From an uncultured Bacilli bacterium (GTDB taxonomy: Bacteria; Bacillota_I; Bacilli_A; RF39; UBA660), in contig CAKOKM010000002.1 in the NCBI GenBank assembly GCA_934091015.1, positions 1 through 51,258 of the forward strand: a stretch of 51,258 nucleotides of DNA. The letters run 5' to 3'. Under the pieces are notes generated by a model, which searched no databases, was not told the DNA's origin, and saw nothing but the letters and a program-made list of their open reading frames with translations. Below are positions 4,346 to 21,481 of the stretch, one piece after another. Position numbers and translations under genes: made by a program. Position 1 is the first letter of the stretch, and every line of letters starts with the position of its first letter.

Positions 4346-4407
4346 AAAGTCTTTATGTTTAATTTTAGAAAAAGAACATATAATATAATGTATGCTACTA
4401 GAGTTAT

Positions 4408-4436: not shown

Positions 4437-4440
4437 TTTC

Positions 4441-4600: not shown

Positions 4601-4601
4601 G

Positions 4602-4651: not shown

Positions 4652-4666
4652 TAGAAAAGAGGGATA

Positions 4667-7528: not shown

Positions 7529-7677
7529 CTAAAAAAGTAAATTAAGGCTTGACTTTTACAAAAAAATATTGTAACATATGTTTGTATATTTAAAAAAGAA
7601 GTAGAAATTAAATATGTTAGTGTATTATTTCTACTTTTTTATTTGAAAAAATATAATATATAAAAAGGAGAGAAAGT

Positions 7678-7959
7678 ATGAAAAATTTAGAAATTAGTAG
7701 TATGTTATTAATGATTAAAAGAGGTTATAATATTTATTCTACAAATAATGTAACAATTGGACAAATGTTAAGTCTTGGTTTAATTGAATTTGTTAATGAA
7801 GAATTAATTATAACTGAAATTGGAGATCTTTATTTAAATAAAGTTATGGAAGAAAAATCTTTATTAGTATTAAGATACTTATCAGCTAATAGCAAAGCAT
7901 TTGATGCTAATATGGCTAATTCATTAAGAAATGAATCAGTTAAAAGAGTATCATTATAA
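7678..7959 (+). CDS. hypothetical protein
   Basis: 93-aa ORF preceded by AAAGGAGAG. No recognisable motif. Confidence 0.4.
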   Translation: MKNLEISSMLLMIKRGYNIYSTNNVTIGQMLSLGLIEFVNEELIITEIGDLYLNKVMEEKSLLVLRYLSANSKAFDANMANSLRNESVKRVSL

Positions 7960-7965
7960 TATGCT

Positions 7966-7990
7966 AAAAACACCTAATTAGGTGTTTTTT
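7966..7990. terminator. bidirectional rho-independent terminator
   Basis: AAAAACACCT-aatt-AGGTGTTTTT sits between convergent genes. Confidence 0.6.
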
Positions 7991-8901
7991 ATATTTATTT
8001 CTTTAATTAAGGTATTATCTAAATAATAAATTACTTTTGATACATCATAATTATCTTGAATAGATAAATTTAAAGTATAGATTGTTTCTTCTATTAAATC
8101 TTTAGATGAAAATACATTATTATTTAAATTTAAGACTATATAGTCGTTCTTAATTTCATAGTTTATTTTTTGAATATCTTTAATATAACTTATTAGATTA
8201 GTGTTATAAACTGATTTAGATGCCATTTGTTCAATTATAATTTTGATTTTATCATCTTTATTGTTGCTCATTAAAGTAATTGGTACATAATAATAAAAGT
8301 CATTATATTTAGATAAATAATAAATAGTTGTTTTAGTTATACCAGTAATTGAGTCAATATTAAATGTTTTATTAATTCCATAACTACGATCTAAAATAGA
8401 ATCAATTACTTCATTATTAGGTAACTTTGTTAAAATATTACCTTCTATATAAATAGATAATTTATAATTTGAATCCAAACTAGTTATAGAATAGATAAGA
8501 GAGGATATTAAGGTATCTATTTTATCATTTTCAATATTTAATAATTCTTTAGAAAAGTTAAGTTTAACTATGTTGTTATCAAGATCAACTGATAATAATT
8601 TAGTATCTTTAGGTATAACTTGTTTAAATCCTTCTTTAATATAATTGCTCTTATTACCATCAATAGTTAAGTAATTAATTATTTCTTTTATTTTATTTAT
8701 TCTGTCATTTTCTTTTAAAATAACATTAACTCTAGCTACATAATTATTGTAATCAATTAGATATATATAAGCATCTTTATAACTTTTTTTCTCATTATTA
8801 ATAGTTTCTATCTTTTTAGTCGGAAATAGATAGATAATTAAAATTATTAAGAGAGAAGATACAATTAAAAAGATACGTTTTTTTAATTTATTTTTTAACA
8901 T
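7978..8901 (-). CDS. gerM: GerM-like sporulation/germination protein (two GerMN-type modules)
   Basis: N-terminal membrane anchor and two repeated modules that resemble GerMN. It sits next to gerE. Start moved to the ATG 5 nt after GGTGG. Confidence 0.55.
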   Translation of the reverse strand: MLKNKLKKRIFLIVSSLLIILIIYLFPTKKIETINNEKKSYKDAYIYLIDYNNYVARVNVILKENDRINKIKEIINYLTIDGNKSNYIKEGFKQVIPKDTKLLSVDLDNNIVKLNFSKELLNIENDKIDTLISSLIYSITSLDSNYKLSIYIEGNILTKLPNNEVIDSILDRSYGINKTFNIDSITGITKTTIYYLSKYNDFYYYVPITLMSNNKDDKIKIIIEQMASKSVYNTNLISYIKDIQKINYEIKNDYIVLNLNNNVFSSKDLIEETIYTLNLSIQDNYDVSKVIYYLDNTLIKEINIKNT

Positions 8902-8959
8902 AAATTCCACCATTAAAATTATATGCTAATTAAAAAAATAAAGTCGCTAATTTGCGACT

Positions 8960-9169
8960 TTATAAAGTTATTTCACCTAATTTAATTAATTCTAATATAG
9001 CACATGATCTATTTTTGCAATCTAATTTTTGAATTACATTAGATATATGATTTCTTACAGTTTTTTCACTAATTAGCAGTTCGTCTGAAATTTGTTTTGT
9101 ACTTTTATTAGTTACTAATAAGTTAAATATTTCTTTTTCTCTTTTAGTTAATAGTGATTCCACTTCCAA
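8960..9169 (-). CDS. gerE: GerE, LuxR-family sporulation regulator
   Basis: 69 aa. LTKREKEIFNLLV...ISEKTVRNHISNVIQKL closely matches my recollection of B. subtilis GerE. Confidence 0.85.
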   Translation of the reverse strand: MEVESLLTKREKEIFNLLVTNKSTKQISDELLISEKTVRNHISNVIQKLDCKNRSCAILELIKLGEITL

Positions 9170-9234
9170 TCTTCCTTTCCATAGTATCCTCTTGATATTT
9201 TATGATAGAGAAAGATAGTTAGTGAATAATCATA

Positions 9235-9723
9235 TTATTGATATTTAACTGTAATGTACATTTGTTTATCAAATTCTTTTTGAATTGTTCTAATAATGTT
9301 ATTAGCGTCTGTTACATTACTGTTTTTAGATGATATTATAACACTTATTTGATCATCTTTAATTTTAATAAAACTTTTTAAATTATATGTTTTAAGAATT
9401 AAAGATTCTAATTTGTTTTCTTTACCTTTAGTACTATTAATACCTTTTAATTTTTCATAAGCATTATTTTTTTCTTGAACACTGACAGTTTGGTCTAAAA
9501 GAATTTCTTGGAGTTCAGCAATAACTTTTTGATCTTGATCATCATTTTCTACTCTTAAAGCACTTAAAGTATCCTCCTCTTTAACATTTAAGGTTTCACT
9601 AGTAGAAGTATTAGATGGCATTAATTTTGTTAAGTTATCTTCATCTAAAGCTACATAGTAAACTGAAAGTACTAATATAATACTAAATAAAGTTAAAAAC
9701 CATAATTTTTGTTTGTTAATCAT
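9235..9723 (-). CDS. spoIIIAH: SpoIIIAH-like sporulation protein
   Basis: N-terminal anchor ending LSVYY, an acidic linker and a C-terminal domain laid out as in SpoIIIAH. ATG at 9723 follows GGAGGA. Confidence 0.6.
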   Translation of the reverse strand: MINKQKLWFLTLFSIILVLSVYYVALDEDNLTKLMPSNTSTSETLNVKEEDTLSALRVENDDQDQKVIAELQEILLDQTVSVQEKNNAYEKLKGINSTKGKENKLESLILKTYNLKSFIKIKDDQISVIISSKNSNVTDANNIIRTIQKEFDKQMYITVKYQ

Positions 9724-9784
9724 TATTATCCTCCATATCAATTTAATTATATTAAAGTAAAATAAAATTATGATATTTTTTTAA

Positions 9785-9850
9785 TTAACGAAACCAAGAA
9801 TATTTAATTATTTTAATTATTTTTAATATTTCAGTAAATACTAATCTCAT
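9785..9850 (-). CDS. possible 21-aa amphipathic peptide (MRLVFTEILKIIKIIKYSWFR)
   Basis: ATG lies 5 nt after GAAAGGAG. Not in the ORF track because it is too short. Confidence 0.3.
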   Translation of the reverse strand: MRLVFTEILKIIKIIKYSWFR

Positions 9851-9885
9851 TTTGACTCCTTTCTATAAAATTTTTTCTTTAATTA

Positions 9886-9942
9886 TTAAAGAAACACTAG
9901 GATTAATCTAGCTAATGTTTTTAGAAAATTTAAAAAACTCAT
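9886..9942 (-). CDS. possible 17-aa amphipathic peptide (MSFLNFLKTLARLILVFL)
   Basis: ATG lies 9 nt after GAAAGGAG. Not in the ORF track. Confidence 0.3.
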   Translation of the reverse strand: MSFLNFLKTLARLILVFL

Positions 9943-10131
9943 TAAAAATTTCTCCTTTCTTAATTATTTCACAAGTTCAACCCCTTATTTACCCTTCACT
10001 TATATATATAGACAAAAAAATTTCATTTTACTTGTTTTTTTTTAAAAATTTTTATTTTTATTGCTTTTTTAAAAAAGTAGTAAAAAAATAAAGTAATTTG
10101 AAAAATTTATCTCTATATATATAAGTAGAGG

Positions 10132-12126
10132 GTGGTAAATATAAAAAGATATATAATAAGACAAGAAGAAGAAAAAGATTGTGGGGCATCATGTTTAGCA
10201 TCAATAGTTAAATATTATAATGGATATGTTCCATTAGAAATAATTAGGAATGATACTTTAACAGATAATAATGGAACTAATTTTTATAATATTAAAATGG
10301 CTGCTATTAAATATGGTTTTGATGTTATGGGATATAATAATGAACAAATAATACCTCCTTATATTGTTCAAACTAGGATAAATGATTGTTATCACTTTAT
10401 GGTTGTATATAAAATAACAGATAAATATGTAATAGTTATGGATCCAGGTAAAGGAATTATAAAGTATTCTAAAAATGATTATAATAAAATATTTACGGGA
10501 TATATGTTAAAGTTAATTCCTGATGGTAAAATTGTTAAATATGATAAAAAGAATAGTTATTTATCTTTCTTAAAGAAATTAGTTAAGAATAATATTAAAA
10601 ATATTATAATTTGTTTTATATTAACTATTATAATTATTATATTAAATTTAAGTGAAACTTATTTAATTAAAGAAGTCTTAATATATAAAGTATTTATTAA
10701 AGAATTACTAATTATATTATTAATTAAATTAAGTGTTAATTGGTTTAAGAATAATATATTAATAAAAGTTAATAAGAAAATAAATATAGAATTAGTTAAT
10801 GATTATATATCTAAATATTTTAGACTCTCATATAAATATTTGTATTTAAAATCTTCAGGAGACATAATTAATAGAATTAAAGATTTAAATAAAATAAAGA
10901 ATTATCTTGTTAATGAGGTTGTTAATTTTAATTTAAATTTAATGATAATGTTAGTAGTTATTGTTATATTATTTATAATAAATTATAAGTTAACATTAGT
11001 TGTAGTTTTGTTATATGTTGTTACATTTATAGTGTGTAAGTATATTAATAAAAAAGTATTAAAAAAGTACAACGAATTAATATATTTAGATAATTTATAT
11101 ATGGATAATGTAAGTGAATATGTAAGTAAAATATTAACGATTAATTCTTTGAATATTAATAATTTCTTTATTAATAGGTTAAATGATAAATCTAAATTAG
11201 TAGGTAATTTTAATTTTAAAGTAGATAAGTTAAATAATTATTTAAATATTGTTTTAGAATTTGTAGAAATAGTAGTTATGATTATAATTTTAAGTTTATC
11301 ATATAAGAAGGGGTTAGATAATATAATCATTTATTTTCTTTATTATAATTATTTTAAAGAAAGTGTTTATTATTTTATAACTATTAATGCTTCTTTTAAT
11401 TATATAAAGTTAGTTATTGATAAGATTAATGGTGTTTATTATTTAAAAGATTATGATAAAAATAAAGGGATAGAGTTTAAAAATGATGATATTATAATTA
11501 ATAATTTAAGTTATTCTTATGGATTAAATAAAGTATTTGATAAGATAAATTATAAAATTAAGGTTGGTAGTAAAGTACTAATTAAAGGTAATAATGGTAG
11601 TGGGAAGAGTACCTTAATTAATATATTAACTAAGAATATTGATGATTATGATGGTGAAGTATTTATTGGAAGTAATATTAAAGATATTAATTATAATAGT
11701 TATTTAGAACATATTTCTTATGTTAATCAACATAGTGAATTATTTGAAGATAGTATAGTTAATAATATTGTTTTAAATAATGAGATAGATAATAATAAGT
11801 TAAATAAAATAGTTAATATACTTGGTTTAGATGATGTCATTAAAAGAAAAGAAAAAAGGATAAATACATTAATTAAAGATAATTTTAGTGGTGGTGAGAA
11901 ACAAAAAATAATTATTGCTAGATGTTTATATAAATGTTCTGATATTATGATATTTGATGAAGCTTTTTCAGAAATAGCATCTGTTGATAGAAATAATATA
12001 ATTAATAAAATTAATGACGTTTATAGAGATAAAACAATTATTTATGTTAATCATTTTAATGATGATATTAAATATGATCAAATCTTGAAGATAAATAATA
12101 CTAGAAAGGATAAAGTAGATGAGTGA
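10132..12126 (+). CDS. bacteriocin ABC exporter with N-terminal C39 peptidase domain
   Basis: C39 catalytic Cys context (EEEKDCGASCLASIVKYYNG), a membrane domain, Walker A GNNGSGKST, signature FSGGEKQK and Walker B IMIFDEA. Confidence 0.9.
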   Translation: MVNIKRYIIRQEEEKDCGASCLASIVKYYNGYVPLEIIRNDTLTDNNGTNFYNIKMAAIKYGFDVMGYNNEQIIPPYIVQTRINDCYHFMVVYKITDKYVIVMDPGKGIIKYSKNDYNKIFTGYMLKLIPDGKIVKYDKKNSYLSFLKKLVKNNIKNIIICFILTIIIIILNLSETYLIKEVLIYKVFIKELLIILLIKLSVNWFKNNILIKVNKKINIELVNDYISKYFRLSYKYLYLKSSGDIINRIKDLNKIKNYLVNEVVNFNLNLMIMLVVIVILFIINYKLTLVVVLLYVVTFIVCKYINKKVLKKYNELIYLDNLYMDNVSEYVSKILTINSLNINNFFINRLNDKSKLVGNFNFKVDKLNNYLNIVLEFVEIVVMIIILSLSYKKGLDNIIIYFLYYNYFKESVYYFITINASFNYIKLVIDKINGVYYLKDYDKNKGIEFKNDDIIINNLSYSYGLNKVFDKINYKIKVGSKVLIKGNNGSGKSTLINILTKNIDDYDGEVFIGSNIKDINYNSYLEHISYVNQHSELFEDSIVNNIVLNNEIDNNKLNKIVNILGLDDVIKRKEKRINTLIKDNFSGGEKQKIIIARCLYKCSDIMIFDEAFSEIASVDRNNIINKINDVYRDKTIIYVNHFNDDIKYDQILKINNTRKDKVDE

Positions 12127-12250
12127 TAGTAAGTTATATAGTATAAGTGGTGGAAAAGCAAAGTATTCTATCTTTGCAATTGTTGGTGGATTAATTACTT
12201 TCTTAATTGGGGTTGTTGATGGGTTCATTCGTCCTACAAAGTGTAATTAA
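12119..12250 (+). CDS. double-glycine-leader bacteriocin precursor, peptide 1 (43 aa)
   Basis: MSDSKLYSISGG|KAKYSIFAIVGGLITFLIGVVDGFIRPTKCN. RBS AAAGGA. The ATG overlaps the exporter stop codon. The mature part has a GxxxG motif. Confidence 0.7.
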   Translation: MSDSKLYSISGGKAKYSIFAIVGGLITFLIGVVDGFIRPTKCN

Positions 12251-12399
12251 TGAATAATTATGAATTAAATAAAATAGTGGGTGGACAAATTAATGGTTCA
12301 ATATTAAATGCCTTATCAAGATTTATTACTACTTTGTTTGAACTTGGTAGATCTGTTGGCAGTAGTTTGCGTCGAGTAACTAATAAAAATATGTGCTAA
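12250..12399 (+). CDS. double-glycine-leader bacteriocin precursor, peptide 2 (49 aa)
   Basis: MNNYELNKIVGG|QINGSILNALSRFITTLFELGRSVGSSLRRVTNKNMC. TAATG overlap with peptide 1. GxxxG motif (GRSVG). Confidence 0.7.
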   Translation: MNNYELNKIVGGQINGSILNALSRFITTLFELGRSVGSSLRRVTNKNMC

Positions 12400-12448
12400 C
12401 GTTCACAAAAAGGATAATATTTGATATAATTTTGGTAGAGGTATTATA

Positions 12449-13531
12449 GTGAATAATAGTATAAAAAAGATATTAAATAAATTAGAAAAAAATGGATTTG
12501 AAGCATATGTTGTAGGAGGTTATGTTAGGGATTATTTACTTAATATAACTTCTTATGATGTTGACATATGTACAAATGCTTTACCTAAAGATATAATTAA
12601 AGTTTTTAAGATTAAAAAGGGTGTTAGTAATTATGGATCTATTGGTTTTAAAATAGGTAAATATAATTATGATATAACTACTTATAGAGAAGATGGGGAA
12701 TATAATAATCATAAGCCTAAAAGTATTAAGTATGTTGATAATTTATTAATAGATTTAAAAAGAAGAGATTTTAGAATTAATTCAATATGTATGAATAATG
12801 AAGGAAAAATATTTGATTATTTAAATGGGAAAGAAGATATTCATAATAAGTTAATTAAAACTATTGGAAGTACAGATGTTAGACTAAATGAAGATCCGGT
12901 TAGAATACTTAGAGCTATTAGATTCGCTATTATATTAGATTTTAATTTAGATGAAGAAATAGTTAGTTTTATTAAAAATAATAAAGATTTATTAAAGAGT
13001 ATAAGTTATACAAGAAAAAAACAAGAGTTAGAAAAAATACTTACATCTAAAAATGCAGTTAAAGGATTAAATTATTTAAAAGAATTAGAATTATTAGATG
13101 AATTAGAAATAAAATATGATAAAATAGTTAATGTTTCTGATATATTAGGAATGTGGGCTCAAATGGAGTTTAGTTTAAAATATCAGTTTACAAAACAATC
13201 TTTAACAATTATTAATCAAATTAAAGAAATAGTTAATTATGGAAAGATTGATTGTTATGTATTACTAAAATATGGATTATATGTTAGTTTAGTTGCAGGA
13301 GAAATATTAGGTTATAGTAGAGAAGATATTAATAAAATGGATAAGCAAATGCCTATTCATAAAATGAGTGATGTTAAAATTAATAATAATGATATAATGA
13401 ATTTATTAAATATTGAGGGTTCTCCTAAACTTAAAACTATTTATGATGATATTGTAGATGAAGTACTTAAAGGAAAAGTTAAGAATAATAAAAGAGATAT
13501 TAAGAAATATATTATTAAAAGATGGATGTGA
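12449..13531 (+). CDS. cca: CCA-adding enzyme / tRNA nucleotidyltransferase family
   Basis: N-terminal VVGGYVRD...DVDI nucleotidyltransferase motif and RDFRINS. Confidence 0.8.
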   Translation: MNNSIKKILNKLEKNGFEAYVVGGYVRDYLLNITSYDVDICTNALPKDIIKVFKIKKGVSNYGSIGFKIGKYNYDITTYREDGEYNNHKPKSIKYVDNLLIDLKRRDFRINSICMNNEGKIFDYLNGKEDIHNKLIKTIGSTDVRLNEDPVRILRAIRFAIILDFNLDEEIVSFIKNNKDLLKSISYTRKKQELEKILTSKNAVKGLNYLKELELLDELEIKYDKIVNVSDILGMWAQMEFSLKYQFTKQSLTIINQIKEIVNYGKIDCYVLLKYGLYVSLVAGEILGYSREDINKMDKQMPIHKMSDVKINNNDIMNLLNIEGSPKLKTIYDDIVDEVLKGKVKNNKRDIKKYIIKRWM

Positions 13532-13538
13532 TATTTAA

Positions 13539-14177
13539 ATGAATAGTAGTTTTTTAGAACAATATGTTAAATCTAAAGATTATATTTTAAGAAAAGAACT
13601 ATTTCCGATAATATGGGAATATAAACTTAACTTAGAAGAAGTACTTTTATTAATATATTTTATGAATGAGGATATACCTACTTTTGATGTTGAACATATT
13701 AATAAAATTACAATGATTAGTGTTAATAAAATATTAGATTCTTTTACTAGTTTAACTAATAAAGGGTTAATATCTATTGATGTTATTAAAGAAAGTAGTG
13801 GAGTTAAAGAGGTTGTTAATCTTGATTCTATTTATAAATGTATGGTTGATGGTTTAATGAAAAATAATAAAAAAGTAGTGAATAATAATATATTTGAAAA
13901 ATTTGAAAAGGAATTTTCAAGAACTTTATCTCCTATGGAGTATGAAATAATTAATGATTGGTTAGATAAAAATATTAGTGAAGATTTGATATTAGGGGCA
14001 TTAAAAGAAGCAACTTATAATGGAGTAAATAATTTAAGGTATATAGATAAAATAATTTATGAATGGACAAAAAAGGGATTTAAAAATATGGAGGATGTAA
14101 GTAATCATTTAAGAAACAGAAGTACTTCTGATAAAAGTGTTAAAGAAATAAGTGATTATAATTGGTTAGATGAATAA
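13539..14177 (+). CDS. dnaD: DnaD-domain replication initiation protein
   Basis: C-terminal DnaD/DnaB_2-like block (LSPMEYEIINDWL...YIDKIIYEWTKKG). dnaD-nth synteny as in Bacillus. Confidence 0.75.
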   Translation: MNSSFLEQYVKSKDYILRKELFPIIWEYKLNLEEVLLLIYFMNEDIPTFDVEHINKITMISVNKILDSFTSLTNKGLISIDVIKESSGVKEVVNLDSIYKCMVDGLMKNNKKVVNNNIFEKFEKEFSRTLSPMEYEIINDWLDKNISEDLILGALKEATYNGVNNLRYIDKIIYEWTKKGFKNMEDVSNHLRNRSTSDKSVKEISDYNWLDE

Positions 14178-14787
14178 GGAAGTTTATGATATTTTAGATT
14201 ATTATATACCTGATCCGAAGTGTGAGCTTGATTATAATAGTCCATTTGAGTTATTAGTATCAACTATTTTAAGTGCACAATGTACTGATAAAAGAGTTAA
14301 TGTTGTTACAAAAGATTTATTTAGTAAATATGATATTAATAGTCTTGCTAAGGTGGATAAGAAAGAAATAGAAAGTATTATTAGATCGTGTGGTTCTTAT
14401 AGTAAAAAAAGTGATTATATAATTACTGTTAGTAAAAGATTATTAAATGATTATAATGGAGTGGTTCCGAATAATAGAAAATATTTAGAATCATTACCGG
14501 GAGTTGGTAGAAAGACTACTAATGTAGTTCTTAAGAATATTTATAATGAGCCGAGTATTCCAGTAGATACGCATGTGGAAAGGGTATCTAAAAGACTTGG
14601 TTTTGCTAAAATGAATGATTCGGTTAGTATCATTGAAAAGAAGCTTATGAAAAAGATTCCTAAAGAAAAGTGGAATAGAGTTAGTGAACAAATTCTTTTA
14701 TTTGGTAGATATTATTGTAAGAGTATTAATCCAAGTTGTGATGGATGTAAATTTAAAAATATTTGTAAGTATAAGAAAAACAGTTAG
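14170..14787 (+). CDS. nth: endonuclease III
   Basis: HhH-GPD motif LPGVGRKTTNVV, DTHVERV, and a C-terminal 4-Cys cluster (CKSINPSCDGCKFKNIC). Confidence 0.9.
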   Translation: MNKEVYDILDYYIPDPKCELDYNSPFELLVSTILSAQCTDKRVNVVTKDLFSKYDINSLAKVDKKEIESIIRSCGSYSKKSDYIITVSKRLLNDYNGVVPNNRKYLESLPGVGRKTTNVVLKNIYNEPSIPVDTHVERVSKRLGFAKMNDSVSIIEKKLMKKIPKEKWNRVSEQILLFGRYYCKSINPSCDGCKFKNICKYKKNS

Positions 14788-14806
14788 AAATTTATCTAAC
14801 TGTTTT

Positions 14807-17584
14807 TTAGCATCCAGCTTTTAATGTTCTTTGGACTGTTTTACTTGATTTTCCATTATATGTTGCCTTATGAGATAAAATATAACTTGTAGTACAATCC
14901 ATTGAAGTGACATTACACTCTTCACCAGTTAATTCTTGAGTACAAGTAGTTGTAAATGATGCTTTATCACTAATATCATTATTATTTGAATGAACTTTTA
15001 ATGGTTTATTATTTTTAATGAAGTTATAATATTCAGCTACTGTCATACTTGATGCACCATTAAGTTCAACTGAAATATTTTCCTCTGGATTATCATTTAC
15101 AGCATTAATAGTAACTGTTATTGGATCTGATGCATTACTTTTAAAGATTGAATACGCTGATTTTACCATAAATGTTGTATTATTAGTAATTGTACCGGTG
15201 TATGTATAAGTTGTGTTAGTAGAGAAGGCTACATAATTGTAACCACTACCATTATTTACATATATATCATAACCAAAGTTGCCAATATTTGCTGCATTAT
15301 ATTCTTTACGTTTACCTAAATATTTTTCTGCCCATACTCCATAGTTTTCTTTAAAGTAATTATCTAAGAATGTATCACTTACAGCATCAGGAGTATTTAT
15401 GCCATTCCATGTTAATGTTACTATATTAGTTCCAGAAACATAATCGGCTTTAATATTTGTTGGAGCAGATAATTTACTAAATCTTGTTGATTCTGTATCA
15501 GGAACTGTTCCTTCTTTGAAATATTCAACACTCTTTAGATTGTCAGGTGTATATTCACTTGCTAATTGAATTGGATTTGTTTCTAATTCAATTGTTGCAG
15601 TAACAACTGATGCTGGTTTAGTAAATATTTTATTAGTACTATTAATTTTAGATGTTAATTCTCTTACAATAGCTTTTTTGACGGTGTTTGCTGCTGATGA
15701 TGTAAGACATGTGTTTCCTTTATTTTCATCATATCCAACCCATACTGCGTATGAATATTGTGGAGTATATGTTACTTGCCATGAATCACCGATAATATCT
15801 CCTTTAACTGTACATCCTTTTTTGGTAGCTGCTGGAATTGTTGATGTACCTGTTTTACTTGCTACTTCAGTGCCACTTTTTGATCCTGCTGATACTTCGC
15901 CACTTTTAACTGCATAAGTTAATATTGCGTTAATCATATAAGCTGTTGAATCACTCATAACTGTTCTTTTTTCGGGTGTTACAGTATAAATTTCGCCAGT
16001 ATCTAAAAATTCAATTTCGGTAAATGAATATGGTTCTATATAAACGCCACCTCTTGCAAATGTGGCATAAGCCGCTGACATTTGTAGTGGGTTAACTCCG
16101 TTAAATCCACCGATACTATGGGCTTCATTAATATATCCGTTTTCGTATTCTGGTGTAATTCCTAAACCAGTTACGAATGTTTTGAGTTGATTTTGAGATA
16201 ATTGTTGAAATGCATATAAGGCAGGAATATTTCTTGAAGATGCTAGAGCAGTTTTAATAGTCATTATACCTTTATATCGATTATCCCAGTTTTTAATATA
16301 TCCGCCATTACTATAAGTATATTCATCATCAACAACCATTTGACCAGTACTCCAATTTAGATATTCGATTGCTGGACCGTAGTCAAAAATTGGTTTAGCA
16401 GATGATCCTGGATGACGTTTAATCATTGTAGCATAGTTATAATTTCTTTCATCATTTTTACGATTGGCACCAACTGCGACAATTGCTCCTGTGTTAACAT
16501 CAGTAACAGCAACACCAGCTCTAATATATTCGTTAGGCCATTTTAAATTTTTATTTGTTCCAGCATATAAATCATTTAAGACGTCTTGTTTTGATTGAAT
16601 CATAGTTGATTTAATTTTCATTGGAACTATGTATGGGTTTTTACCAGTTCTTTTAATTACTTCTTCAACAACAGTATTAATAAATCCGATATTTTTGTTA
16701 TTAGATCTACTACCGTTATAAATCATATCTTTAACTTTAATTGATTTTGCAATTTCACATTCTTCGTCATTAATGTAACCATGACGTTTCATTAAATTTA
16801 ATACTTGATTTCTTCTGGCTTCAGCCTTTTCAGGATAATTTATTGGGTTATAAGCAGATGGTGCTTGAAATAATCCAACAAGTAGAGCGGCTTCAGCTAA
16901 ATTAACTTCACTAATTGATTTATTAAAGTAAGTTTGGGCAGCTTGTTCAATACCGAAAGCACTACTTCCTAAATCAGGAATATTTACATAAAATTCAATT
17001 AATTGTTCTTTTGTATAAGTTTTTTCTAATTTAAATACAGACATATACATATCGGTAAATTTACGAACTAATCCTTTAATACCACTTGATTCATAACCAC
17101 TATATCTTTGTTTAGCAATTTGCATTGTTAGAGTGGAAGCACCTCCGGCACCACTTTGTCCTAAAACTTGACCAATAGATGCTTTTATAAATCTGGCTAA
17201 GTCAACACCGTGATGTTGAAAGAATCTTGAATCTTCAGTAGCTACTAGAGCATCAACAAATACCTCGGGTAATTCATCATAAGTAACTCTTTGTCTATTT
17301 TCAGTTCCAAGTCTAGCTATTTCGTTATTTTCAGAATCATAGACTATTGATGCTTCTTTAGTGTATAAATTATTGGCATCGAAATCAGGAGCTGATATTA
17401 CAATATAGATAGCAAACGCGAATCCGAGAATAAATATCGATACTAATATAAGCATAATAATTATTAGAATTTTTTCTCCTAAATTACCTTTTTTAAATCT
17501 TCTTTTAAAAGCACTTAAATTACCTTTATCATTAGATTTAACATTTGTTTTTTTAGTTCTTTTCTTTATTTTAATCTTTTTCAT
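14807..17584 (-). CDS. ponA: class A penicillin-binding protein (PBP1A) with long C-terminal extension
   Basis: Glycosyltransferase motif EDSRFFQHHGVD and transpeptidase SSAKP. recU lies immediately upstream, as in Bacillus. Confidence 0.9.
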   Translation of the reverse strand: MKKIKIKKRTKKTNVKSNDKGNLSAFKRRFKKGNLGEKILIIIMLILVSIFILGFAFAIYIVISAPDFDANNLYTKEASIVYDSENNEIARLGTENRQRVTYDELPEVFVDALVATEDSRFFQHHGVDLARFIKASIGQVLGQSGAGGASTLTMQIAKQRYSGYESSGIKGLVRKFTDMYMSVFKLEKTYTKEQLIEFYVNIPDLGSSAFGIEQAAQTYFNKSISEVNLAEAALLVGLFQAPSAYNPINYPEKAEARRNQVLNLMKRHGYINDEECEIAKSIKVKDMIYNGSRSNNKNIGFINTVVEEVIKRTGKNPYIVPMKIKSTMIQSKQDVLNDLYAGTNKNLKWPNEYIRAGVAVTDVNTGAIVAVGANRKNDERNYNYATMIKRHPGSSAKPIFDYGPAIEYLNWSTGQMVVDDEYTYSNGGYIKNWDNRYKGIMTIKTALASSRNIPALYAFQQLSQNQLKTFVTGLGITPEYENGYINEAHSIGGFNGVNPLQMSAAYATFARGGVYIEPYSFTEIEFLDTGEIYTVTPEKRTVMSDSTAYMINAILTYAVKSGEVSAGSKSGTEVASKTGTSTIPAATKKGCTVKGDIIGDSWQVTYTPQYSYAVWVGYDENKGNTCLTSSAANTVKKAIVRELTSKINSTNKIFTKPASVVTATIELETNPIQLASEYTPDNLKSVEYFKEGTVPDTESTRFSKLSAPTNIKADYVSGTNIVTLTWNGINTPDAVSDTFLDNYFKENYGVWAEKYLGKRKEYNAANIGNFGYDIYVNNGSGYNYVAFSTNTTYTYTGTITNNTTFMVKSAYSIFKSNASDPITVTINAVNDNPEENISVELNGASSMTVAEYYNFIKNNKPLKVHSNNNDISDKASFTTTCTQELTGEECNVTSMDCTTSYILSHKATYNGKSSKTVQRTLKAGC

Positions 17585-18144
17585 TTTCTTTCTCCTTTAA
17601 AATAAACATTATCAAGTGTGTTAATATAATTTAATATTGGATTATAACTATATTCAATTTGATAACCTTTTTCTTCTATATAAGAGTAGGGAATACTTTT
17701 TTTATTATTATTTTCAATAAAATTAATAATATCTTCTCCTTTAAGTAAAAATACTTTATTTTGAATATCTATAAGTAAGAATGTAATACCTTCATGTTTA
17801 ATTATCGTCTTCATATGTTTTAATTGATGAGGATGAATATTAGATAAAGGAAAAGAATTTATATTAAGAGTTTTTTTTGCATCAAAATCAATATATTTTC
17901 CTTTATATAAACCAACATAATCTAAAGTAGATTTTTGATTTAAATATCCTTCAACTTTAGGTATATCATTAGTATATGTTACTTTCTTTATTTTAACAGG
18001 GGTAGGTTTCTTATAAATAACAGCAATGTCTTCATTTAAATAATAGTCATTTGCTTCATTAATAAGAGTTTCTAAATCCATTCCTCTATTGGCAAAAGAT
18101 ATATTTTTTTTTACTTTCTTTTTAATATTATTTGGATATAACAA
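17581..18144 (-). CDS. recU: Holliday junction resolvase RecU
   Basis: Size and recU-ponA operon arrangement fit. It overlaps the ponA start by 4 nt. Confidence 0.8.
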   Translation of the reverse strand: MLYPNNIKKKVKKNISFANRGMDLETLINEANDYYLNEDIAVIYKKPTPVKIKKVTYTNDIPKVEGYLNQKSTLDYVGLYKGKYIDFDAKKTLNINSFPLSNIHPHQLKHMKTIIKHEGITFLLIDIQNKVFLLKGEDIINFIENNNKKSIPYSYIEEKGYQIEYSYNPILNYINTLDNVYFKGERK

Positions 18145-18272
18145 TACGTATCACCCATTAATAATTATACTTTAGGTTTAAATTTTTTTCTACAAGTTTG
18201 CAATTTTTTAACATCTTTATTATAATTAAAGTGTAAACTAAGAGTTTATTTGATTGAATTGAGGAAAATTAT

Positions 18273-18857
18273 ATGAAAATTGAAACAAGTAATTTAGAAG
18301 TTATTGCAATAAGAACAAGTCAGTATCCAACTGATAATAAACCTGAATTTTTATTAGTAGGAAGATCTAACGTTGGTAAGAGTAGTTTTATTAACACTAT
18401 GATTGGTAGAAAAAACTATGCTAAAACTAGCGCTACTCCTGGTAAAACTCAAACTTTAAATTTTTATTTATGTAATAATTCATTTTATTTAGTTGATGTT
18501 CCGGGATATGGTTATGCAAGTGTAAGTAAAGCAACTCAAAAGAAGTTTGGTTTAATGATTGAAGAATATTTAAAGACTAGAAGTAATTTAAAGAATGTTT
18601 TTATGATAATTGATGGCAGAAATAAACCAACTGAAAATGATGTATTAATGTATAATTATTTAAAATATTACAATATACCAGTAACTATTATCGCTAATAA
18701 ATATGATAAAATAAGTGCTAATAATAGAGATAAAACTTTAAAAAATATTACTAATATATTAAATCTTAATGAAGATGATAAAATAATTTATTTTTCTTCA
18801 ATAAATAAAAAGGGAAGAGACGAAGTAGGCAAAGTTATTGCTGAATATTTAAAGTAA
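18273..18857 (+). CDS. engB: ribosome biogenesis GTPase EngB/YsxC
   Basis: G1 GRSNVGKSS, G3 DVPGYG, G4 NKYDK. Confidence 0.9.
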   Translation: MKIETSNLEVIAIRTSQYPTDNKPEFLLVGRSNVGKSSFINTMIGRKNYAKTSATPGKTQTLNFYLCNNSFYLVDVPGYGYASVSKATQKKFGLMIEEYLKTRSNLKNVFMIIDGRNKPTENDVLMYNYLKYYNIPVTIIANKYDKISANNRDKTLKNITNILNLNEDDKIIYFSSINKKGRDEVGKVIAEYLK

Positions 18858-18858
18858 A

Positions 18859-20635
18859 ATGGATTTAAGTAAAGAATTAAAATATATAAAGAAAAAATAT
18901 GGTGAAAAAATGATGCATTATTGTAGGGAATGTTTTCCTACAATTTTAAATGTGTCTGGTAAATTAATTGAAATATTAAATACTCATTTTTATTATGTTA
19001 GAGATAGTTTATATAATGATATCGTAAATAATCATAAAGAAGAAGAATTTAATGATTATGTTTATAGTAAAGCTGGATTAAAAAATGAATATGATATTAA
19101 GGATGTAAGTAAAACGCCTAAAGAATTATTAAATGATGTGGGTTATGATTTTTATGAATGTAAGAGCGTAGAAGATATTATGAACTTCAAAAAATATTAT
19201 GCTTCAAAGGAAGATTTATGTACTTTTTGGAGTCCCGATTCGAGATTAAAAAGATTTTTTGTTTTCTTTGCAGTTAAGAAAAATGCTTTAGATATTAAAA
19301 GAGAGGAATTTGTTATTCCTGATAGAGAAGATGAATATGGAACTAGTGTAATATCAATTCAGTTTTCTAGAGATAAATATAATCATCTATCAATTAAAAA
19401 TCGATATAATGAATCGGTTAATAATCCAGATTCTACTTTTAATAATAATTTAGATAATATTGTACCGGGACTAACAATGAGTTTTTATAAAACTTATGAT
19501 ATTAAAGAAGTATATTTTGAAAATGCTGAATTTCAAATGGAAAATTATATAAGTGTTAATGAAGAATATTTTAAGTTTAACTATAAATTAAATGATATAT
19601 ATTATTGTACAAATAATGTAATAGTTGATAATGGTAATGTGATTAGATATGATCCTGAAAAATATATAATAATGGATTATTTTATAATTGATTTAGTTAA
19701 TAAAAAGGTAGATGTTTTTGATAGTAAACTAAGAGATAGTTTTAGCGAAGTTATTGGTAAAATTAAAAATATTGAAATTGTTAGGGGAGGAAAAGATAAG
19801 AAGGTATATATTACAAACGAGGAAGACAATATTTTTGAACTTACTTTGTCTTTTGATAATAAATTGATTGGAATAAAAGATAATATGATAGATAAATTAC
19901 CTGATCGTTTCTTGATTTCAGGTCAATATCTTAAAAATATGGAATTTAATAATGTTAGAGAGATTGGTAATGATGTGTTATATGCTAATATGGATTTAGA
20001 ATATTTTAATTTAAGTAAGGCAGAAGTTATCGGAAATTATTTCTTAGCTAATAATATTAAATTAACGAATGTTGATTTAAATAAAACTATAATGATTGGT
20101 GATGATTTTTTAAAGAGAAATATTATAGTTGAAAGTATAAATTTTGATTCACTAAAAAGAGTAGGAAACAGTTTTATGTTTTCTAATAGAGGGTTAAGTT
20201 AGAGGGTTAAGTTCAATTGTATTACCTAATTTAAGTTATACTGGTAAATGTTTCTTTAAATTAAACGATAAGGTCTTATTTGCTTCTTTTCCTTCTCTTC
20301 AAGAAACTGGTGATTTTTTTATGAATGATGCTAAAAACTTAAGAATGTTTGAAGCAGATAATTTGAGAGTTACTGGTGATATGTTTATGATGGCTAATAA
20401 AGAACTTGATTATATATCACTACCAAATTTAATTAAAACTGGTAAATTGTTTTTAGCTGCTAATCAGATTATAATGAGTGTTAATTTACCAAATCTTTCT
20501 TATTTACCGAAATATTTTTTACGTAATGCGGGAGAACTGGAAAGTATAACATTAGCAGATAATTGTAGTTGGGATGATATTTATAATAAAAAGTTATTAG
20601 AATTAATGCATGAGAAGAAGGGAAAAACTTTATGA
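18859..20635 (+). pseudogene. LRR-containing protein gene split by a 13-bp tandem duplication
   Basis: ORFs 18859-20202 and 20321-20635 lie in frames 1 and 2. Removing one 13-bp copy fuses them into a single 587-aa ORF, and the roughly 22-aa BspA-like LRR periodicity continues across the junction. Confidence 0.7.
20188..20213 (+). repeat. perfect 13-bp tandem duplication (AGAGGGTTAAGTT x2)
   Basis: 20188-20200 is identical to 20201-20213. The junction creates the TAG stop at 20200-20202. Confidence 0.9.
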
Positions 20636-20910
20636 TAAAATTGTTAATTAATAAAATTGATGGTTATAATTATTATTTAAATGATGTTAATTCAAATGAT
20701 AGCTATGTTATTAATATAGAGTTTTATGGTAATAAACCTGCTGTTAATGACTATTTATATTTGAATTATCCATTAACTAAAGAAAAAATACTTAATATTG
20801 GTCCGTTAACAAGTGAATGTGGAAATGAAGTATTAAGTGAAGATGATGATGATTTTGTTAAACTTGAAAATGATGGTAAAATTATTTATTTAAAGAGAAT
20901 ATATGGTTAA
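20632..20910 (+). CDS. hypothetical protein
   Basis: 92-aa ORF with an ATGA overlap onto the preceding ORF. Confidence 0.45.
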   Translation: MIKLLINKIDGYNYYLNDVNSNDSYVINIEFYGNKPAVNDYLYLNYPLTKEKILNIGPLTSECGNEVLSEDDDDFVKLENDGKIIYLKRIYG

Positions 20911-20955
20911 AACTGTTAAAATTAGCAGTTTTTTCTTTTTTAATGATTTTAATAC

Positions 20956-20984
20956 TTGATTTATGTTAAAAAATATTATAGAAT
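20956..20984 (+). promoter_or_regulatory. promoter of tRNA-Arg
   Basis: TTGATT, 17 nt, then TAGAAT, ending 21 nt before the tRNA. Confidence 0.5.
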
Positions 20985-21005
20985 TAATTTGTTCATTTGA
21001 GATAT

Positions 21006-21082
21006 GTCCCCGTAGCTCAGCTGGATAGAGCATACGCCTTCTAAGCGTACGGTCGCGCGTTCGAATCGCGCCGGAGACACCA
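21006..21082 (+). tRNA. tRNA-Arg (anticodon TCT), CCA encoded
   Basis: Cloverleaf features are visible: GTAGCTCAGCTGGATAGAGC D-arm, anticodon loop CTTCTAA, GTTCGAATC T-arm. There is one C-A mismatch in the acceptor stem. Confidence 0.9.
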
Positions 21083-21160
21083 TATATTGATATTAAGCTC
21101 TTGGTATAAGGGCTTTTTTCGTGTGATAAGGTTTTGCGTTAGTTAACTCAGAAAATAAAA

Positions 21161-21189
21161 TTGAAAAATAAAGATAATTATGCTACAAT
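21161..21189 (+). promoter_or_regulatory. promoter of sRNA (type I TA-like locus 1)
   Basis: TTGAAA, 17 nt, then TGcTACAAT (an extended -10). Confidence 0.6.
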
Positions 21190-21194
21190 GAATA

Positions 21195-21311
21195 TGTAAG
21201 GAAAACTTACATAAAATAAAAAGAGGAACATTCTATTCTGTAAGTGAATGCCGTCTCTAAAAAATAGTGTTGACACTCAATCAGAGATGAAAGAGTGTCA
21301 TATTTTTATTG
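21195..21311 (+). ncRNA. candidate antisense sRNA, locus 1
   Basis: 5' hairpin ATGTAAG-gaaaa-CTTACAT. The terminator GACACTC-n14-GAGTGTC plus T-run overlaps the 3' end of the opposite-strand peptide ORF. Confidence 0.5.
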
Positions 21312-21390
21312 CTATTACCAATATGGTAAGGAGTAATAAATTGATAGCAATAAGACGAAGGACTTTTATTATAAAAGTTCTTTTCTTCAT
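21298..21390 (-). CDS. 30-aa hydrophobic peptide, type I toxin-like (MKKRTFIIKVLRLIAINLLLLTILVIAIKI)
   Basis: ATG lies 5 nt after AAAGGAGGG. The 5' UTR carries an anti-SD sequence (TCCTCC). Basic N-terminus followed by one TM helix. Not in the ORF track. Confidence 0.55.
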   Translation of the reverse strand: MKKRTFIIKVLRLIAINLLLLTILVIAIKI

Positions 21391-21452
21391 TGTATCCCTC
21401 CTTTCTTTCTTAAGATTGGAGGACGACACTCACATCAAATGTTCCTGATAAA

Positions 21453-21481
21453 ATTATATAATAAGTAAATTTATAAAACAA
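21453..21481 (-). promoter_or_regulatory. promoter of the locus 1 peptide mRNA
   Basis: Minus-strand TTGTTT, 17 nt, then TATAAT. The predicted start is at AGGAACATTT. Confidence 0.5.

Follow-up and report, generated by a model that had tools for sequence, protein, structure and literature searches.

What is encoded between positions 21161 and 21481 of this stretch of DNA, immediately beyond the tRNA-Arg(TCT) gene (21006-21082) that adjoins it? The stretch of DNA analysed here (the window, 51,258 nt) comes from an uncultured Bacilli bacterium, and a sequence-only reading of it had proposed that this locus, locus 1, is a type I toxin-antitoxin-like module in which a small hydrophobic peptide is controlled by a convergently transcribed antisense RNA. 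Based on the analyses described below, we conclude that positions 21161-21481 are probably occupied by a type I toxin-antitoxin-like cassette that is chromosomal and belongs to a family not described before; we assign this reading a probability of roughly three in four.

Results

Two predicted convergent transcription units at locus 1

The features of locus 1 are as follows.

21161..21189, plus strand: promoter of the sRNA (putative antitoxin), with -35 TTGAAA (21161-66), a 17-nt spacer and extended -10 TGcTACAAT (-10 at 21184-89)
21194..21311 (about), plus strand: predicted antisense sRNA, 115-118 nt, ends predicted, in the order 5' hairpin, A-rich linker, central "module" hairpin, terminator
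21194..21212, plus strand: sRNA 5' hairpin, AUGUAAG-GAAAA-CUUACAU
21213-21221, plus strand: sRNA A-rich linker, directly after the 5' hairpin
21222..21258, plus strand: sRNA central module hairpin, AGAGG-AA-CAUUC ... GAAUG-CCG-UCUCU
21272..21299: shared hairpin, GACACTC (21272-78) / GAGTGTC (21293-99), then ATATTTTTATT on the plus strand
21453..21481, minus strand: promoter of the peptide mRNA, with -35 TTGTTT (21481..76), a 17-nt spacer and -10 TATAAT (21458..53)
A21446, minus strand: predicted start site of the peptide mRNA
21424..21446, minus strand: mRNA 5' end, which repeats the sRNA module in the sense orientation (AGGAACAUUUGAUGUGAGUGUCG...) and whose predicted partner is the 3' end of the same mRNA
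21423..21418, minus strand: anti-Shine-Dalgarno (anti-SD) UCCUCC (DNA TCCTCC), 17 nt upstream of the Shine-Dalgarno (SD) sequence and paired to it in the minimum free energy (MFE) fold
21401..21396, minus strand: SD GGAGGG, 5 nt ahead of the ATG
21390..21298, minus strand: 30-aa peptide ORF (putative toxin), MKKRTFIIKVLRLIAINLLLLTILVIAIKI, TGA stop included
21213..21258, minus strand: probable mRNA terminator, consisting of the antisense of the sRNA module hairpin and a U-tract, which complements the A-rich linker of the sRNA

Both promoters proposed earlier are present. The plus-strand promoter scored 10/12 in a 1.4-kb scan for sigma-70-like sites, where it was among the two best and, of those two, the only one with the TG extension. 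The minus-strand promoter was absent from the scan output because its -35 matches the consensus at only 3/6 positions; it was read directly from the sequence at 21481..21453. The non-coding RNA of about 117 nt predicted downstream of the plus-strand promoter appears to be structured (z = -4.6). The stem that had been described as its terminator was found and meets the peptide stop codon with a 2-nt overlap; the U-tract of this terminator follows the stem at 21301-21311. On the same strand, sepF lies ~330 nt downstream of the structured RNA and its terminator.

The 30-residue peptide read on the minus strand has a basic N-terminus followed by a hydrophobic stretch of ~18 residues, which would form one transmembrane helix. 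Within its own subfamily, the locus 1 ORF gave a pN/pS of 0.51. The 30-aa core is the only part common to its homologues, whose N-terminal extensions differ.

A second cassette and a wider family

The cassette has further copies. One is a paralogue in the same window:

45228..45556: second cassette, subfamily B
45228-45256, plus strand: sRNA promoter of cassette 2
45261-45362 (about), plus strand: predicted sRNA of cassette 2
45458..45363, minus strand: 31-aa ORF of cassette 2, MNKRLLYFIIFNLFIIIFILFYIIIKMIVLK, GTG start
45556..45527, minus strand: promoter of the cassette 2 mRNA, 5' end at about 45519

Beyond the window, at least 45 further copies were found across ~30 gut "Bacilli/Tenericutes" metagenome-assembled genomes. 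An exact 19-nt hairpin is common to 41 cassettes overall, an identity that follows from its use as the search pattern. Six more copies carry variant hairpins, some of them in tandem arrays and some differing in the loop, and a peptide-only route reached 2 further loci. In these peptide-found loci the 5' hairpin reads GCAAG/CUUGC rather than GUAAG/CUUAC, a compensatory U-A to C-G change. Genomes carry up to ~8 copies, and at least one carrier has a genome of ~1.3 Mb (largest contig). Many copies are pseudogenised. The flanking genes vary by copy: at locus 2, the second cassette of the window, the neighbour encodes a cadherin-like surface protein, and other copies have unrelated neighbours. Two subfamilies neighbour tRNA genes. 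Subfamily C, present as a single copy, keeps a syntenic position beside tRNA-Gln in ~17 species.

Conservation extends past the repeated sequences to both promoters. A convergent, SD-preceded ORF of 22-31 aa, basic and then hydrophobic, is kept in 33 of the 37 complete loci; across the family its pN/pS is 0.29-0.51, variation is lowest at codon position 2, and the deletion present in 2 loci is in frame (18 nt). All 41 sRNA promoters contain TGnTAnnnT, and a TTG-type -35 lies 17 nt upstream in all but two of them (at 16 nt in one, none found in the other). Most mRNA promoters have weaker -10 boxes than these extended -10 promoters, and subfamilies A and C conserve the TTGTTT element with its preceding GTTCGC. 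All of the unique sRNAs (30/30) form the central hairpin, several positions of which show compensatory pairs, and RNAalifold identified 5 of its pairs as altered on both sides. Since the cross-subfamily MAFFT alignment misaligns the 3' arm of the sRNA, the pairs were counted per sequence and anchored on the 5' arm. The near-invariant 5' hairpin and A-rich linker are common to subfamilies with diverged peptides and pairing regions. With a paralogue, family copies and conserved elements that show compensatory changes, the cassette is more than a chance arrangement.

The SD is occluded in cis

The pairing of TCCTCC with GGAGGG, noted from the locus 1 sequence, has an equivalent in every family member analysed. 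An upstream anti-SD pairs with the SD in 26/26 unique 5' UTRs, through a helix of which at least 8 compensating forms occur. The mean probability that the SD is unpaired was 0.11, compared with 0.60 for 22 other genes of the window (p = 6e-7). We also considered closure of the SD by sRNA bound at the 3' end, as in SR4. Cofolding of the sRNA and mRNA barely altered the predicted accessibility of the SD in most loci, where it is closed whether or not the sRNA is bound. An effect on translation like that of SR4 is thus unsupported, and this candidate was rejected.

The predicted mRNA 3' end and its predicted pairing with the 5' end

The extent of the overlap between the two RNAs depends on where the mRNA terminates. 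On the mRNA strand, the 8 nt after the antisense-module hairpin hold 6-7 U in every family member; the 8 nt after the shared hairpin hold 0-3 U in nearly all other family members, and at locus 1 the U-run begins only past a 7-nt spacer, AACACUA. Because the usable mRNA terminator is the antisense of the sRNA central hairpin with its U-tract, transcription of the mRNA most likely runs through the antisense of the whole sRNA body before it ends, and the overlap would be ~95 nt and not ~45 nt. This overlap probably takes in the whole sRNA except its 5' hairpin. The 3'-end overlap proposed by the sequence-only reading is therefore supported in its convergent arrangement and revised in its extent: judged from predicted ends, the 3'-3' overlap of the convergent genes lies outside the initiation region and spans at least ~45 nt, probably ~95 nt.

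The 5' end of the mRNA is a sense copy of the sRNA central hairpin, a feature absent from the sequence-only reading. As a result, the full-length mRNA is predicted to pair its 5' end with its 3' end (5' AGGAACAUU / 3' AAUGUUCCU). Full-length mRNAs with the antisense-module terminator folded with z = -7.4 at locus 1 and -8.4 at locus 2, and the duplex energy of cognate 5' and 3' ends was -33 kcal/mol, compared with -21 for ends paired across subfamilies and -10 for two separate hairpins. The 5'-3' closure at the family loci is thus strongly predicted and subfamily-specific; it depends on the mRNA 3' end, itself a prediction, and would be impossible for an mRNA stopping at the first hairpin.

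In the DNA, the sRNA module and the mRNA 5' module form imperfect ~30-bp inverted repeats that flank the ORF and hairpin in every copy. Since the repeat is inverted, it has the same sense in both RNAs, which therefore lack complementarity at this element. Differences between the two modules are biased toward C-to-U and A-to-G (55 versus 19 reverse transitions), changes that keep pairing as G-U and so point to RNA-level selection. This asymmetry was considered as proof of the 5'-3' helix and set aside, as maintenance of the pairing within each hairpin accounts for it equally well. The bias marks RNA-level selection and leaves either helix as its object.

Loss of the sRNA gene and toxin-side lesions among strains

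Natural strains offer an approximation to a genetic experiment: toxin expression appears to be lost once the antitoxin gene is gone. The species of the window is common, with an identical SepF in more than 2,500 assembly blocks. Among its strains with identical SepF, toxin-side lesions were present in 0 of 3 alleles with an intact sRNA gene versus 8 of 9 in which it is deleted. The lesions in the sRNA-lost alleles hit the toxin promoter, SD or start codon, and they arose by at least two independent routes: a 58-nt promoter deletion, and point changes in the promoter with a subsequent mutation of the SD or of the start codon (ATG to ATA). A metagenome scan for more locus 1 strains returned only 6 loci, so the association test is small; the co-decay rests on few independent events, and neutral decay of a dispensable cassette could also be its source. 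None of the 12 strain alleles has the inverted orientation, and sepF stays identical in strains without the sRNA promoter.

Family-wide, sRNA-only remnants (L002, L007, the second copy of L026, and L042) outnumber the lone toxin-only allele, L057. In L057 the toxin gene and its promoter are apparently intact, and the sRNA promoter and central hairpin are gone. This allele implies either that sRNA loss is not immediately lethal or that read-through from tRNA-Arg supplies antisense RNA.

Database and literature searches

The family is undescribed and lies outside Pfam, NCBIfam and Rfam. At the gathering score, Rfam recognized two tRNAs only in the window; at E <= 10 the remainder was noise, with MCS4 as the best sub-threshold hit (24.9 bits versus a gathering score of 56). 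Searches with the peptides gave no match in Pfam or NCBIfam (E <= 10) or among PDB sequences. A 43-aa GTG-extended ORF matched 4 proteins in a set of 5.8 billion, none with a name or Pfam domain, and family genes have been called in a handful of assemblies only, none of them named or domain-annotated. A full-text literature search with the hairpin and peptide sequences found no paper. The locus had no BLASTN match in PLSDB plasmids or INPHARED phages, and three scans of IMG/VR, one for the hairpin, one for the mRNA module of subfamily B and one for hairpin plus linker in degenerate form, returned nothing but one false positive inside a coding region. Across PLSDB, INPHARED, IMG/VR and the neighbouring genes, no link to a prophage, plasmid or other mobile element was found.

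Discussion

Our analyses suggest that locus 1 functions as a type I toxin-antitoxin-like cassette, as the sequence-only reading had proposed. This interpretation is supported by a conserved peptide, a covarying anti-SD, an antisense promoter stronger than that of its target, copies that are multiple and in places tandem, and joint decay of the two genes. Like the type I class in general, the locus has a small hydrophobic peptide of the membrane type, an antisense RNA complementary to the toxin mRNA (at the sequence level, for predicted transcripts) and cis elements, the SD and anti-SD, against premature translation. Support for a toxic action of the peptide and its neutralisation by the RNA is indirect and comes from the natural alleles that lost the sRNA gene.

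The likeness to txpA/RatA and bsrG/SR4 of Bacillus subtilis that had been drawn from the sequence holds for architecture and not for homology. All three loci combine a small hydrophobic peptide with two convergent RNAs, the toxin mRNA and an antisense sRNA, whose overlap (predicted for locus 1) is confined to the 3' ends, while searches of Pfam, NCBIfam and Rfam at E <= 10 revealed no homology of the peptide or sRNA to TxpA, BsrG, RatA or SR4. The new peptides are shorter (22-31 aa versus 59 for TxpA), and it is their N-terminus that is basic, whereas TxpA and BsrG are charged at the C-terminus. BsrG has ~38 aa. The Bacillus subtilis systems reside on the skin element and the SPbeta prophage, whereas locus 1 is chromosomal and non-prophage. 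In txpA/RatA the overlap is ~75 nt (PMC4147584), and the SD of bsrG is partly sequestered in cis (PMC3834814). By analogy with these systems, duplex-triggered decay by RNase III is expected at locus 1 (PMC4147584, PMC3834814). An increase in SD occlusion upon sRNA binding, as with SR4, is not predicted here, and locus 1 differs from both systems in that its mRNA 5' end copies the sRNA hairpin in sense, with predicted 5'-3' closure.

The par system of Enterococcus faecalis pAD1 (fst RNA I/RNA II) also has convergent promoters and a shared hairpin, which acts as a bidirectional terminator; a 5' stem-loop sequesters its SD, the extreme 5' end of the toxin mRNA is sequestered, and an element is repeated near the 5' ends of both RNAs (PMC7472228). 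Locus 1 shares the convergent promoters, the shared hairpin, the SD stem-loop, 5'-end sequestration (predicted) and a repeated element. However, in the new family the shared hairpin, read on the mRNA strand, is for the most part not followed by a U-tract. Further, the par repeats DRa/DRb are direct in the DNA, making the RNAs complementary at the toxin initiation region, whereas the locus 1 repeats are inverted and its RNAs lack such complementarity in trans (trans-duplex z ~0). [quoted passage not shown]

In Staphylococcus aureus, sprA1/SprA1AS pairs a 30-aa membrane peptide with a cis-antisense sRNA overlapping the mRNA 3' end. SprA1AS represses in trans via its non-overlapping 5' domain, and PepA1 is a member of the Fst family. 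The 5' domain of the locus 1 sRNA is without such complementarity, and the new peptides do not belong to the Fst family. SprA1AS is far more abundant than the toxin mRNA (PMC7472228). Closure of a full-length mRNA by a long-distance 5'-3' interaction, with an anti-SD on the SD, is known from hok/Sok and aapA1/IsoA1 and is reflected in the T1TAdb descriptors (PMC8594479; PMC6733600). Locus 1 resembles these systems of plasmid R1 and Helicobacter pylori in its SD/anti-SD pair and, by prediction, in 5'-3' closure. They belong to different phyla and show no homology to it in Pfam, and antitoxins of the Sok/IsoA type bind near the 5' end of an mRNA that has been processed at its 3' end, whereas the locus 1 sRNA is complementary only to the 3' partner of the helix.

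With these comparisons in mind, we propose the following model. A moderately strong minus-strand promoter would produce an mRNA for a 30-residue peptide, presumed to be a membrane-acting toxin, whose translation would be blocked in cis by pairing of the anti-SD with the SD. The stronger extended -10 promoter on the plus strand would produce a structured sRNA of ~117 nt, predicted to match the 3' portion of the mRNA with perfect complementarity: certainly over the shared hairpin and most likely over the whole 3' UTR. Excess sRNA would then form a long duplex with this region, to be cut by a double-strand RNase such as RNase III, and the mRNA would be destabilised as in txpA/RatA and bsrG/SR4; the cis lock would stop translation of any mRNA escaping the sRNA. 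In its full-length form the mRNA may also pair its two ends, as in hok and AapA1, so that its 5' end and the sRNA would compete for one 3' UTR. We tentatively extend this model, as one possibility, to an sRNA that acts as a sense mimic of the mRNA 5' end. On this view the 3' UTR would be a switch with two states, one a self-closed mRNA that is stable and silent, the other an mRNA bound by the sRNA and sensitive to RNase, with the 5' hairpin and linker as a handle for a host factor (RNase, chaperone or ribosome). Such logic is unlike that of par, with its direct repeats and 5' pairing, and that of hok, where the antitoxin acts at the 5' end.

Other explanations must be weighed against the toxin-antitoxin reading. 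The peptide could be a small non-toxic membrane protein, for example a transporter or envelope modulator, whose level is tuned by the antisense RNA. Its toxicity is a presumption, L057 tolerates loss of the sRNA gene, and the single-copy, syntenic state of subfamily C beside tRNA-Gln suggests a retained host function. We nevertheless regard this as rather unlikely, since every copy has an occluded SD, maintained through compensating changes, the antisense promoter is stronger than that of the mRNA, copies are tandem and multiple within genomes with many pseudogenised, and repeated knock-outs of expression signals after sRNA loss form the classic pattern of a toxin and not of a benign protein. 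It seems quite improbable that the 5' domain of the sRNA acts in trans on the SD and start codon with the 3' overlap as an incidental feature (cf. SprA1AS/sprA1 and DRa/DRb of par RNA II/RNA I). The 3' arm of the central hairpin is anti-SD-like (UUACCU) and could form 7 bp with the SD in subfamily B; however, RNAduplex paired the first 80 nt of the sRNA with the cognate 5' UTR and start codon no better than dinucleotide shuffles (mean z -0.2; +0.4 at locus 1), the same-sense repeat offers no complementarity, and the SD is already closed in cis.

Two further readings concern the DNA around the peptide gene. The imperfect inverted repeats around the ORF and hairpin in every copy, the multiple copies and the location of two subfamilies beside tRNA genes would suit a small mobile or invertible element with the ~30-bp repeats as recombination sites. 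This is very improbable given that conservation goes beyond the repeats to both promoters, that no recombinase is linked, that the 55-to-19 preference for G-U-preserving differences reflects selection on RNA and not DNA, and that no inverted allele was seen among the 12 from strains. Finally, the position of a structured RNA with a terminator upstream of sepF on the same strand could indicate a cis-regulatory leader of that gene (terminator/antiterminator or riboswitch), with the minus-strand ORF being spurious. We give this next to no credence, as the neighbours differ between copies, the opposite-strand ORF with its SD and own promoter is conserved under purifying selection, and sepF is unchanged in strains that lost the sRNA promoter.

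Taken together, a type I toxin-antitoxin-like cassette at locus 1 would extend this class to a clade of uncultured gut Bacilli. The presence of one subfamily at a syntenic site in ~17 species argues for a function in the host, and the inverted-repeat architecture provides a testable variant in which an antitoxin that binds the 3' end may communicate with the 5' end of its target. The cassette also represents a compact set of parts, with a strong promoter, a stabilising 5' hairpin and an SD lock, from hosts without genetic tools.

Structure of locus 1

Each element that the sequence-only reading had named at locus 1 (window 21161-21481) was found when both strands were read. Here, a minus-strand gene for a 30-aa peptide, the putative toxin, converges on a predicted sRNA gene, the putative antitoxin.

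Elements of locus 1 and its neighbouring tRNA
21006-21082: tRNA-Arg(TCT)
21161-66, with -10 at 21184-89, plus strand: sRNA promoter TTGAAA, 17 nt, TGcTACAAT
21194-21212, plus strand: 5' hairpin AUGUAAG-GAAAA-CUUACAU, 7 bp, at the predicted sRNA 5' end
Between the 5' and second hairpins, plus strand: A-rich linker
21222-21258, plus strand: second (central) sRNA hairpin
21272-78 / 21293-99, plus strand: shared hairpin GACACTC/GAGTGTC, then ATATTTTTATT
21481..76 and 21458..53, minus strand: mRNA promoter TTGTTT, 17 nt, TATAAT; start predicted at A21446
21423..18 and 21401..396, minus strand: anti-SD UCCUCC and SD GGAGGG
ATG at 21390, TGA 21300..298, minus strand: peptide ORF, 30 codons

The TGA stop and the hairpin arm have 2 nt in common. 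In a scan of the surrounding 1.4 kb, the sRNA promoter was among the top two promoter-like sites (10/12), and it alone of those two carries a TG extension. The predicted sRNA fold beats 200/200 shuffles (z = -4.6). The predicted sRNA 5' end reads AUG-UAA (window 21194-21199) in every family copy; if transcription starts at A21194, this would form a leaderless start-stop mini-ORF inside the conserved 5' hairpin.

A family of chromosomal cassettes

The suggestion that more copies be sought proved fruitful, as a repeat search of the window found a 94%-identical second sRNA promoter and 5' hairpin at 45243-45289. These belong to locus 2 (45228-45556, subfamily B), which repeats the locus-1 architecture with another peptide of 31 aa (MNKRLLYFIIFNLFIIIFILFYIIIKMIVLK, GTG start), between a 148-aa ORF without a Pfam match and a cadherin-like surface protein. 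The 19-nt hairpin, used as a pattern against one genome per GTDB species, gave 47 loci; 9 were chance matches and the 38 others hold 39 cassettes. A relaxed pattern within the fetched DNA added six copies, some of them in tandem arrays in which two or three cassettes repeat every ~360 nt, and the highest copy number was ~8, in one assembly. All but one of the cassette-bearing assemblies are labelled uncultured Bacilli, Tenericutes or Bacillales, or Candidatus Onthousia, and many bear gut-study names (Hadza, UMGS). Neighbouring genes in the window have housekeeping roles (SepF, DivIVA, a sigma factor and PolC), and plasmid, phage and viral-contig collections gave no cassette matches; the context is therefore chromosomal.

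The subfamily A cassette adjoins tRNA-Arg(TCT) in both the window and UBA6331 (L035). Subfamily C cassettes (22 aa) are single-copy and always lie ~80 nt from a divergently oriented tRNA-Gln(CTG), in ~17 species-level genomes; their loci (L005, L006, L010, L012, L019, L020, L024, L034) have a conserved upstream stretch, CTATCACAAAAAGG..TTGACAAC. Elsewhere in the window, an AAA_14/DUF4143 ATPase gene (22608-23876, minus strand, 422 aa) is bracketed by 41-nt inverted repeats (22530-22570 / 23953-23993, 83% complementary). Since strain orthologues L049-L054 lack it, with the sigma-factor gene 48 nt after DivIVA, segment 22530-23993 resembles a mobile insertion confined to the window's lineage. 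Three tandem copies of a ~43-nt unit (AAAAAGCTAGTGATTCC..AGGAACTTAAAAAAGAA; 34-nt-spaced, each with a small inverted repeat) occupy 25254-25364, between the sigma-factor gene and a 171-aa ORF (25407-25922) that is followed by polC (25991-30574). An intergenic gap at 4466-4563 holds two adjacent 48-nt repeats, 81% identical and GC-richer than their surroundings (AAATGTTAGCCGCTCTTGGATGGCGCGGGTTATAAATTATTCCAGTCG).

The peptide gene and its predicted translational lock

A convergent, SD-preceded ORF of 22-31 codons lies at a constant distance from the sRNA gene in 33 of the 37 complete loci. Peptides of the three subfamilies have in common an N-terminal M-x-K-K/R, a 16-22-residue hydrophobic stretch and usually a terminal basic residue. 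The pN/pS ratio within subfamilies is 0.29-0.51, with the least variation at codon position 2; an in-frame 18-nt deletion accounts for one length variant. The only relatives of the locus-1 peptide in databases have precisely its 30-residue core in common with it, their N-terminal extensions being unrelated, which fixes the start at the ATG at 21390. Searches of Pfam, NCBIfam and PDB sequences returned no relative of the peptides. Judged from these sequence patterns, the peptide gene is real. At L073 (1501-1692), from another organism, 33 unrelated N-terminal residues precede the core in one continuous reading frame. Other sequence stands in place of the usual 5' UTR and its anti-SD, but the convergent sRNA gene is still intact; the copy may have been rearranged or be under different regulation.

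The proposed pairing of TCCTCC with GGAGGG was confirmed and extends family-wide, as the SD is paired with an upstream anti-SD in the minimum-energy folds of 26/26 distinct 5' UTRs. The helix sequence varies between lineages with compensating changes (CCUCC/GGAGG, CCUCA/UGAGG, AUUACCUCU/AGAGGUGAU in the 9-bp lock of locus 2, GAUUACCUUAUUUC/GAAAUGAGGUGAUC, CCUCUUUCUA/UAGAAAGGGG, UCUCCUU/AAGGAGA, CCUUUUUUCA/UGAAAGAAGG and UACCAC/GUGGUA). Mean probability of an unpaired SD is 0.11 in the family versus 0.60 for 22 ordinary window genes (Mann-Whitney p = 6e-7). Peptide translation is thus predicted to be locked in cis.

Promoters and structure of the sRNA

An extended -10 (TGnTAnnnT) is present in 41/41 sRNA copies, with a TTG-type -35 at 17 nt in all but two; one of these has it at 16 nt, and in the other none was found. 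Poorer -10 boxes (TATTGT, TATTCT) are the rule among the mRNA promoters, the exception being subfamily A (TATAAT). In type I systems the antitoxin promoter is typically stronger than the toxin promoter. The central hairpin forms in 30/30 unique sequences, with U-A/C-G/G-C exchanges at several positions, and RNAalifold found 5 sRNA pairs with both sides changed. The 5' hairpin is invariant partly because it served as the search pattern; at loci reached through the peptide, GCAAG/CUUGC replaces GUAAG/CUUAC, a compensatory change, before the same AUAAAAUAAAAAAGAGGAACA. No Rfam family matches the sRNA, which we predict to be structured and strongly expressed.

GTTCGC is conserved directly upstream of the TTGTTT -35 in mRNA promoters of subfamilies A and C (window 21467-21481) and is mutated to GTTTGC in decayed alleles. 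Subfamily B mRNA promoters have a conserved GAATTTTCG ~15 nt upstream of the -35. A regulator could bind at either motif.

Predicted ends of the mRNA and probable action of the sRNA

In almost every member, the 8 nt that come after the stop-codon hairpin on the mRNA strand include just 0-3 U, whereas the following hairpin, the antisense of the sRNA central hairpin, is succeeded by 6-7 U, the complement of the A-rich linker. The mRNA therefore probably runs to ~21213; the overlap would then be ~95 nt, all of the sRNA but its 5' hairpin. In every subfamily, the mRNA opens with ~35 nt that repeat the sRNA central hairpin in the sense orientation (at the DNA level, the two form an inverted repeat), so the full-length mRNA is predicted to pair its 5' with its 3' end. 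Full-length folds have z = -7.4 (locus 1) and -8.4 (locus 2), and cognate ends have a predicted duplex energy of -33 kcal/mol, versus -21 across subfamilies and -10 for two separate hairpins. Where the two copies differ, the mRNA copy mostly has U for C or G for A (55 vs 19 reverse transitions), substitutions that preserve RNA pairing as G-U. This bias shows selection at the RNA level but on its own does not establish which helix is under selection, and we regard 5'-3' closure of the mRNA as an even bet.

Complementarity between the non-overlapping part of the sRNA and the mRNA initiation region was no better than in shuffled controls (mean z = -0.2), so the sRNA is unlikely to block initiation in trans in the manner of par or SprA1AS. 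Predicted SD accessibility shifts only slightly when the mRNA is cofolded with the sRNA, since the SD is closed without it. On both grounds, the best-supported candidate mechanism is antisense pairing of the sRNA along the mRNA 3' region, with the duplex leading to duplex-dependent decay. The cis SD lock would be a second safeguard, and the sRNA and the mRNA 5' end would compete for the 3' UTR. Duplex-dependent decay after 3' antisense pairing has been shown for txpA/RatA and bsrG/SR4 (PMC4147584, PMC3834814).

The likeness to those two systems that had been proposed stands for architecture (convergent genes, 3' overlap, a partly closed SD); it does not extend to homology or to a prophage context. 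The par/Fst system resembles the cassette in its convergent promoters, in a hairpin common to both RNAs, in a 5' stem-loop that covers the SD and in a repeat close to the 5' end of each RNA (PMC7472228); however, that repeat is direct in par and inverted in the cassette, whose peptide lacks the Fst/Ldr signature. The 5'-3' closure of hok and aapA1 (PMC8594479, PMC6733600) is only predicted in the cassette, and their antitoxins bind the opposite mRNA end from its sRNA. A full-text search of the accessible literature did not find the hairpin or peptide sequences.

Natural variation between strains

The window SepF is identical in >2,500 assembly blocks, and 12 distinct alleles of the tRNA-Arg/sepF spacer were surveyed (the window and strain orthologues of its positions 21084-21645). 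The sRNA gene is intact in three (window, L049, L050), likewise with intact toxin promoter, SD, ATG and ORF. The other nine have a common deletion of the sRNA promoter and half of the sRNA. L057 still has its toxin gene intact, immediately downstream of the tRNA-Arg terminator and with no evident promoter for an antitoxin. In L054, L058 and L060, a 58-nt deletion removed the mRNA promoter, with a premature stop in L060 as well. L051, L052, L053, L055 and L056 have common promoter changes (GTTCGC to GTTTGC, spacer 16 vs 17), joined by a weakened SD (AGAGGG) in L052 and L055 and by ATG to ATA and SD GGAGAG in L051, L053 and L056. In strain L049, an HTH_38 (IS30-like) transposase gene (954-2159) lies between a 92-aa ORF and the tRNA-Arg/toxin-antitoxin region.

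Toxin-side lesions thus occur in 0/3 sRNA-intact versus 8/9 sRNA-deleted alleles (one-sided Fisher ~0.02, hand-computed on phylogenetically non-independent alleles). Neutral decay of a dispensable cassette could also produce this pattern. Silencing of the toxin took at least two independent routes, both hitting expression signals, and family-wide an intact sRNA with a dead or absent toxin (L002, L007, the second L026 copy, L042) is commoner than the reverse. A toxin with its antidote would produce such an excess of sRNA-only cassettes.

In conclusion, the sequence evidence makes locus 1 a genuine, well-supported candidate for a type I toxin-antitoxin-like cassette, and we put the probability that it is an antisense-controlled toxin-type peptide gene at roughly 0.75. 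It is the founding example of an unannotated family.
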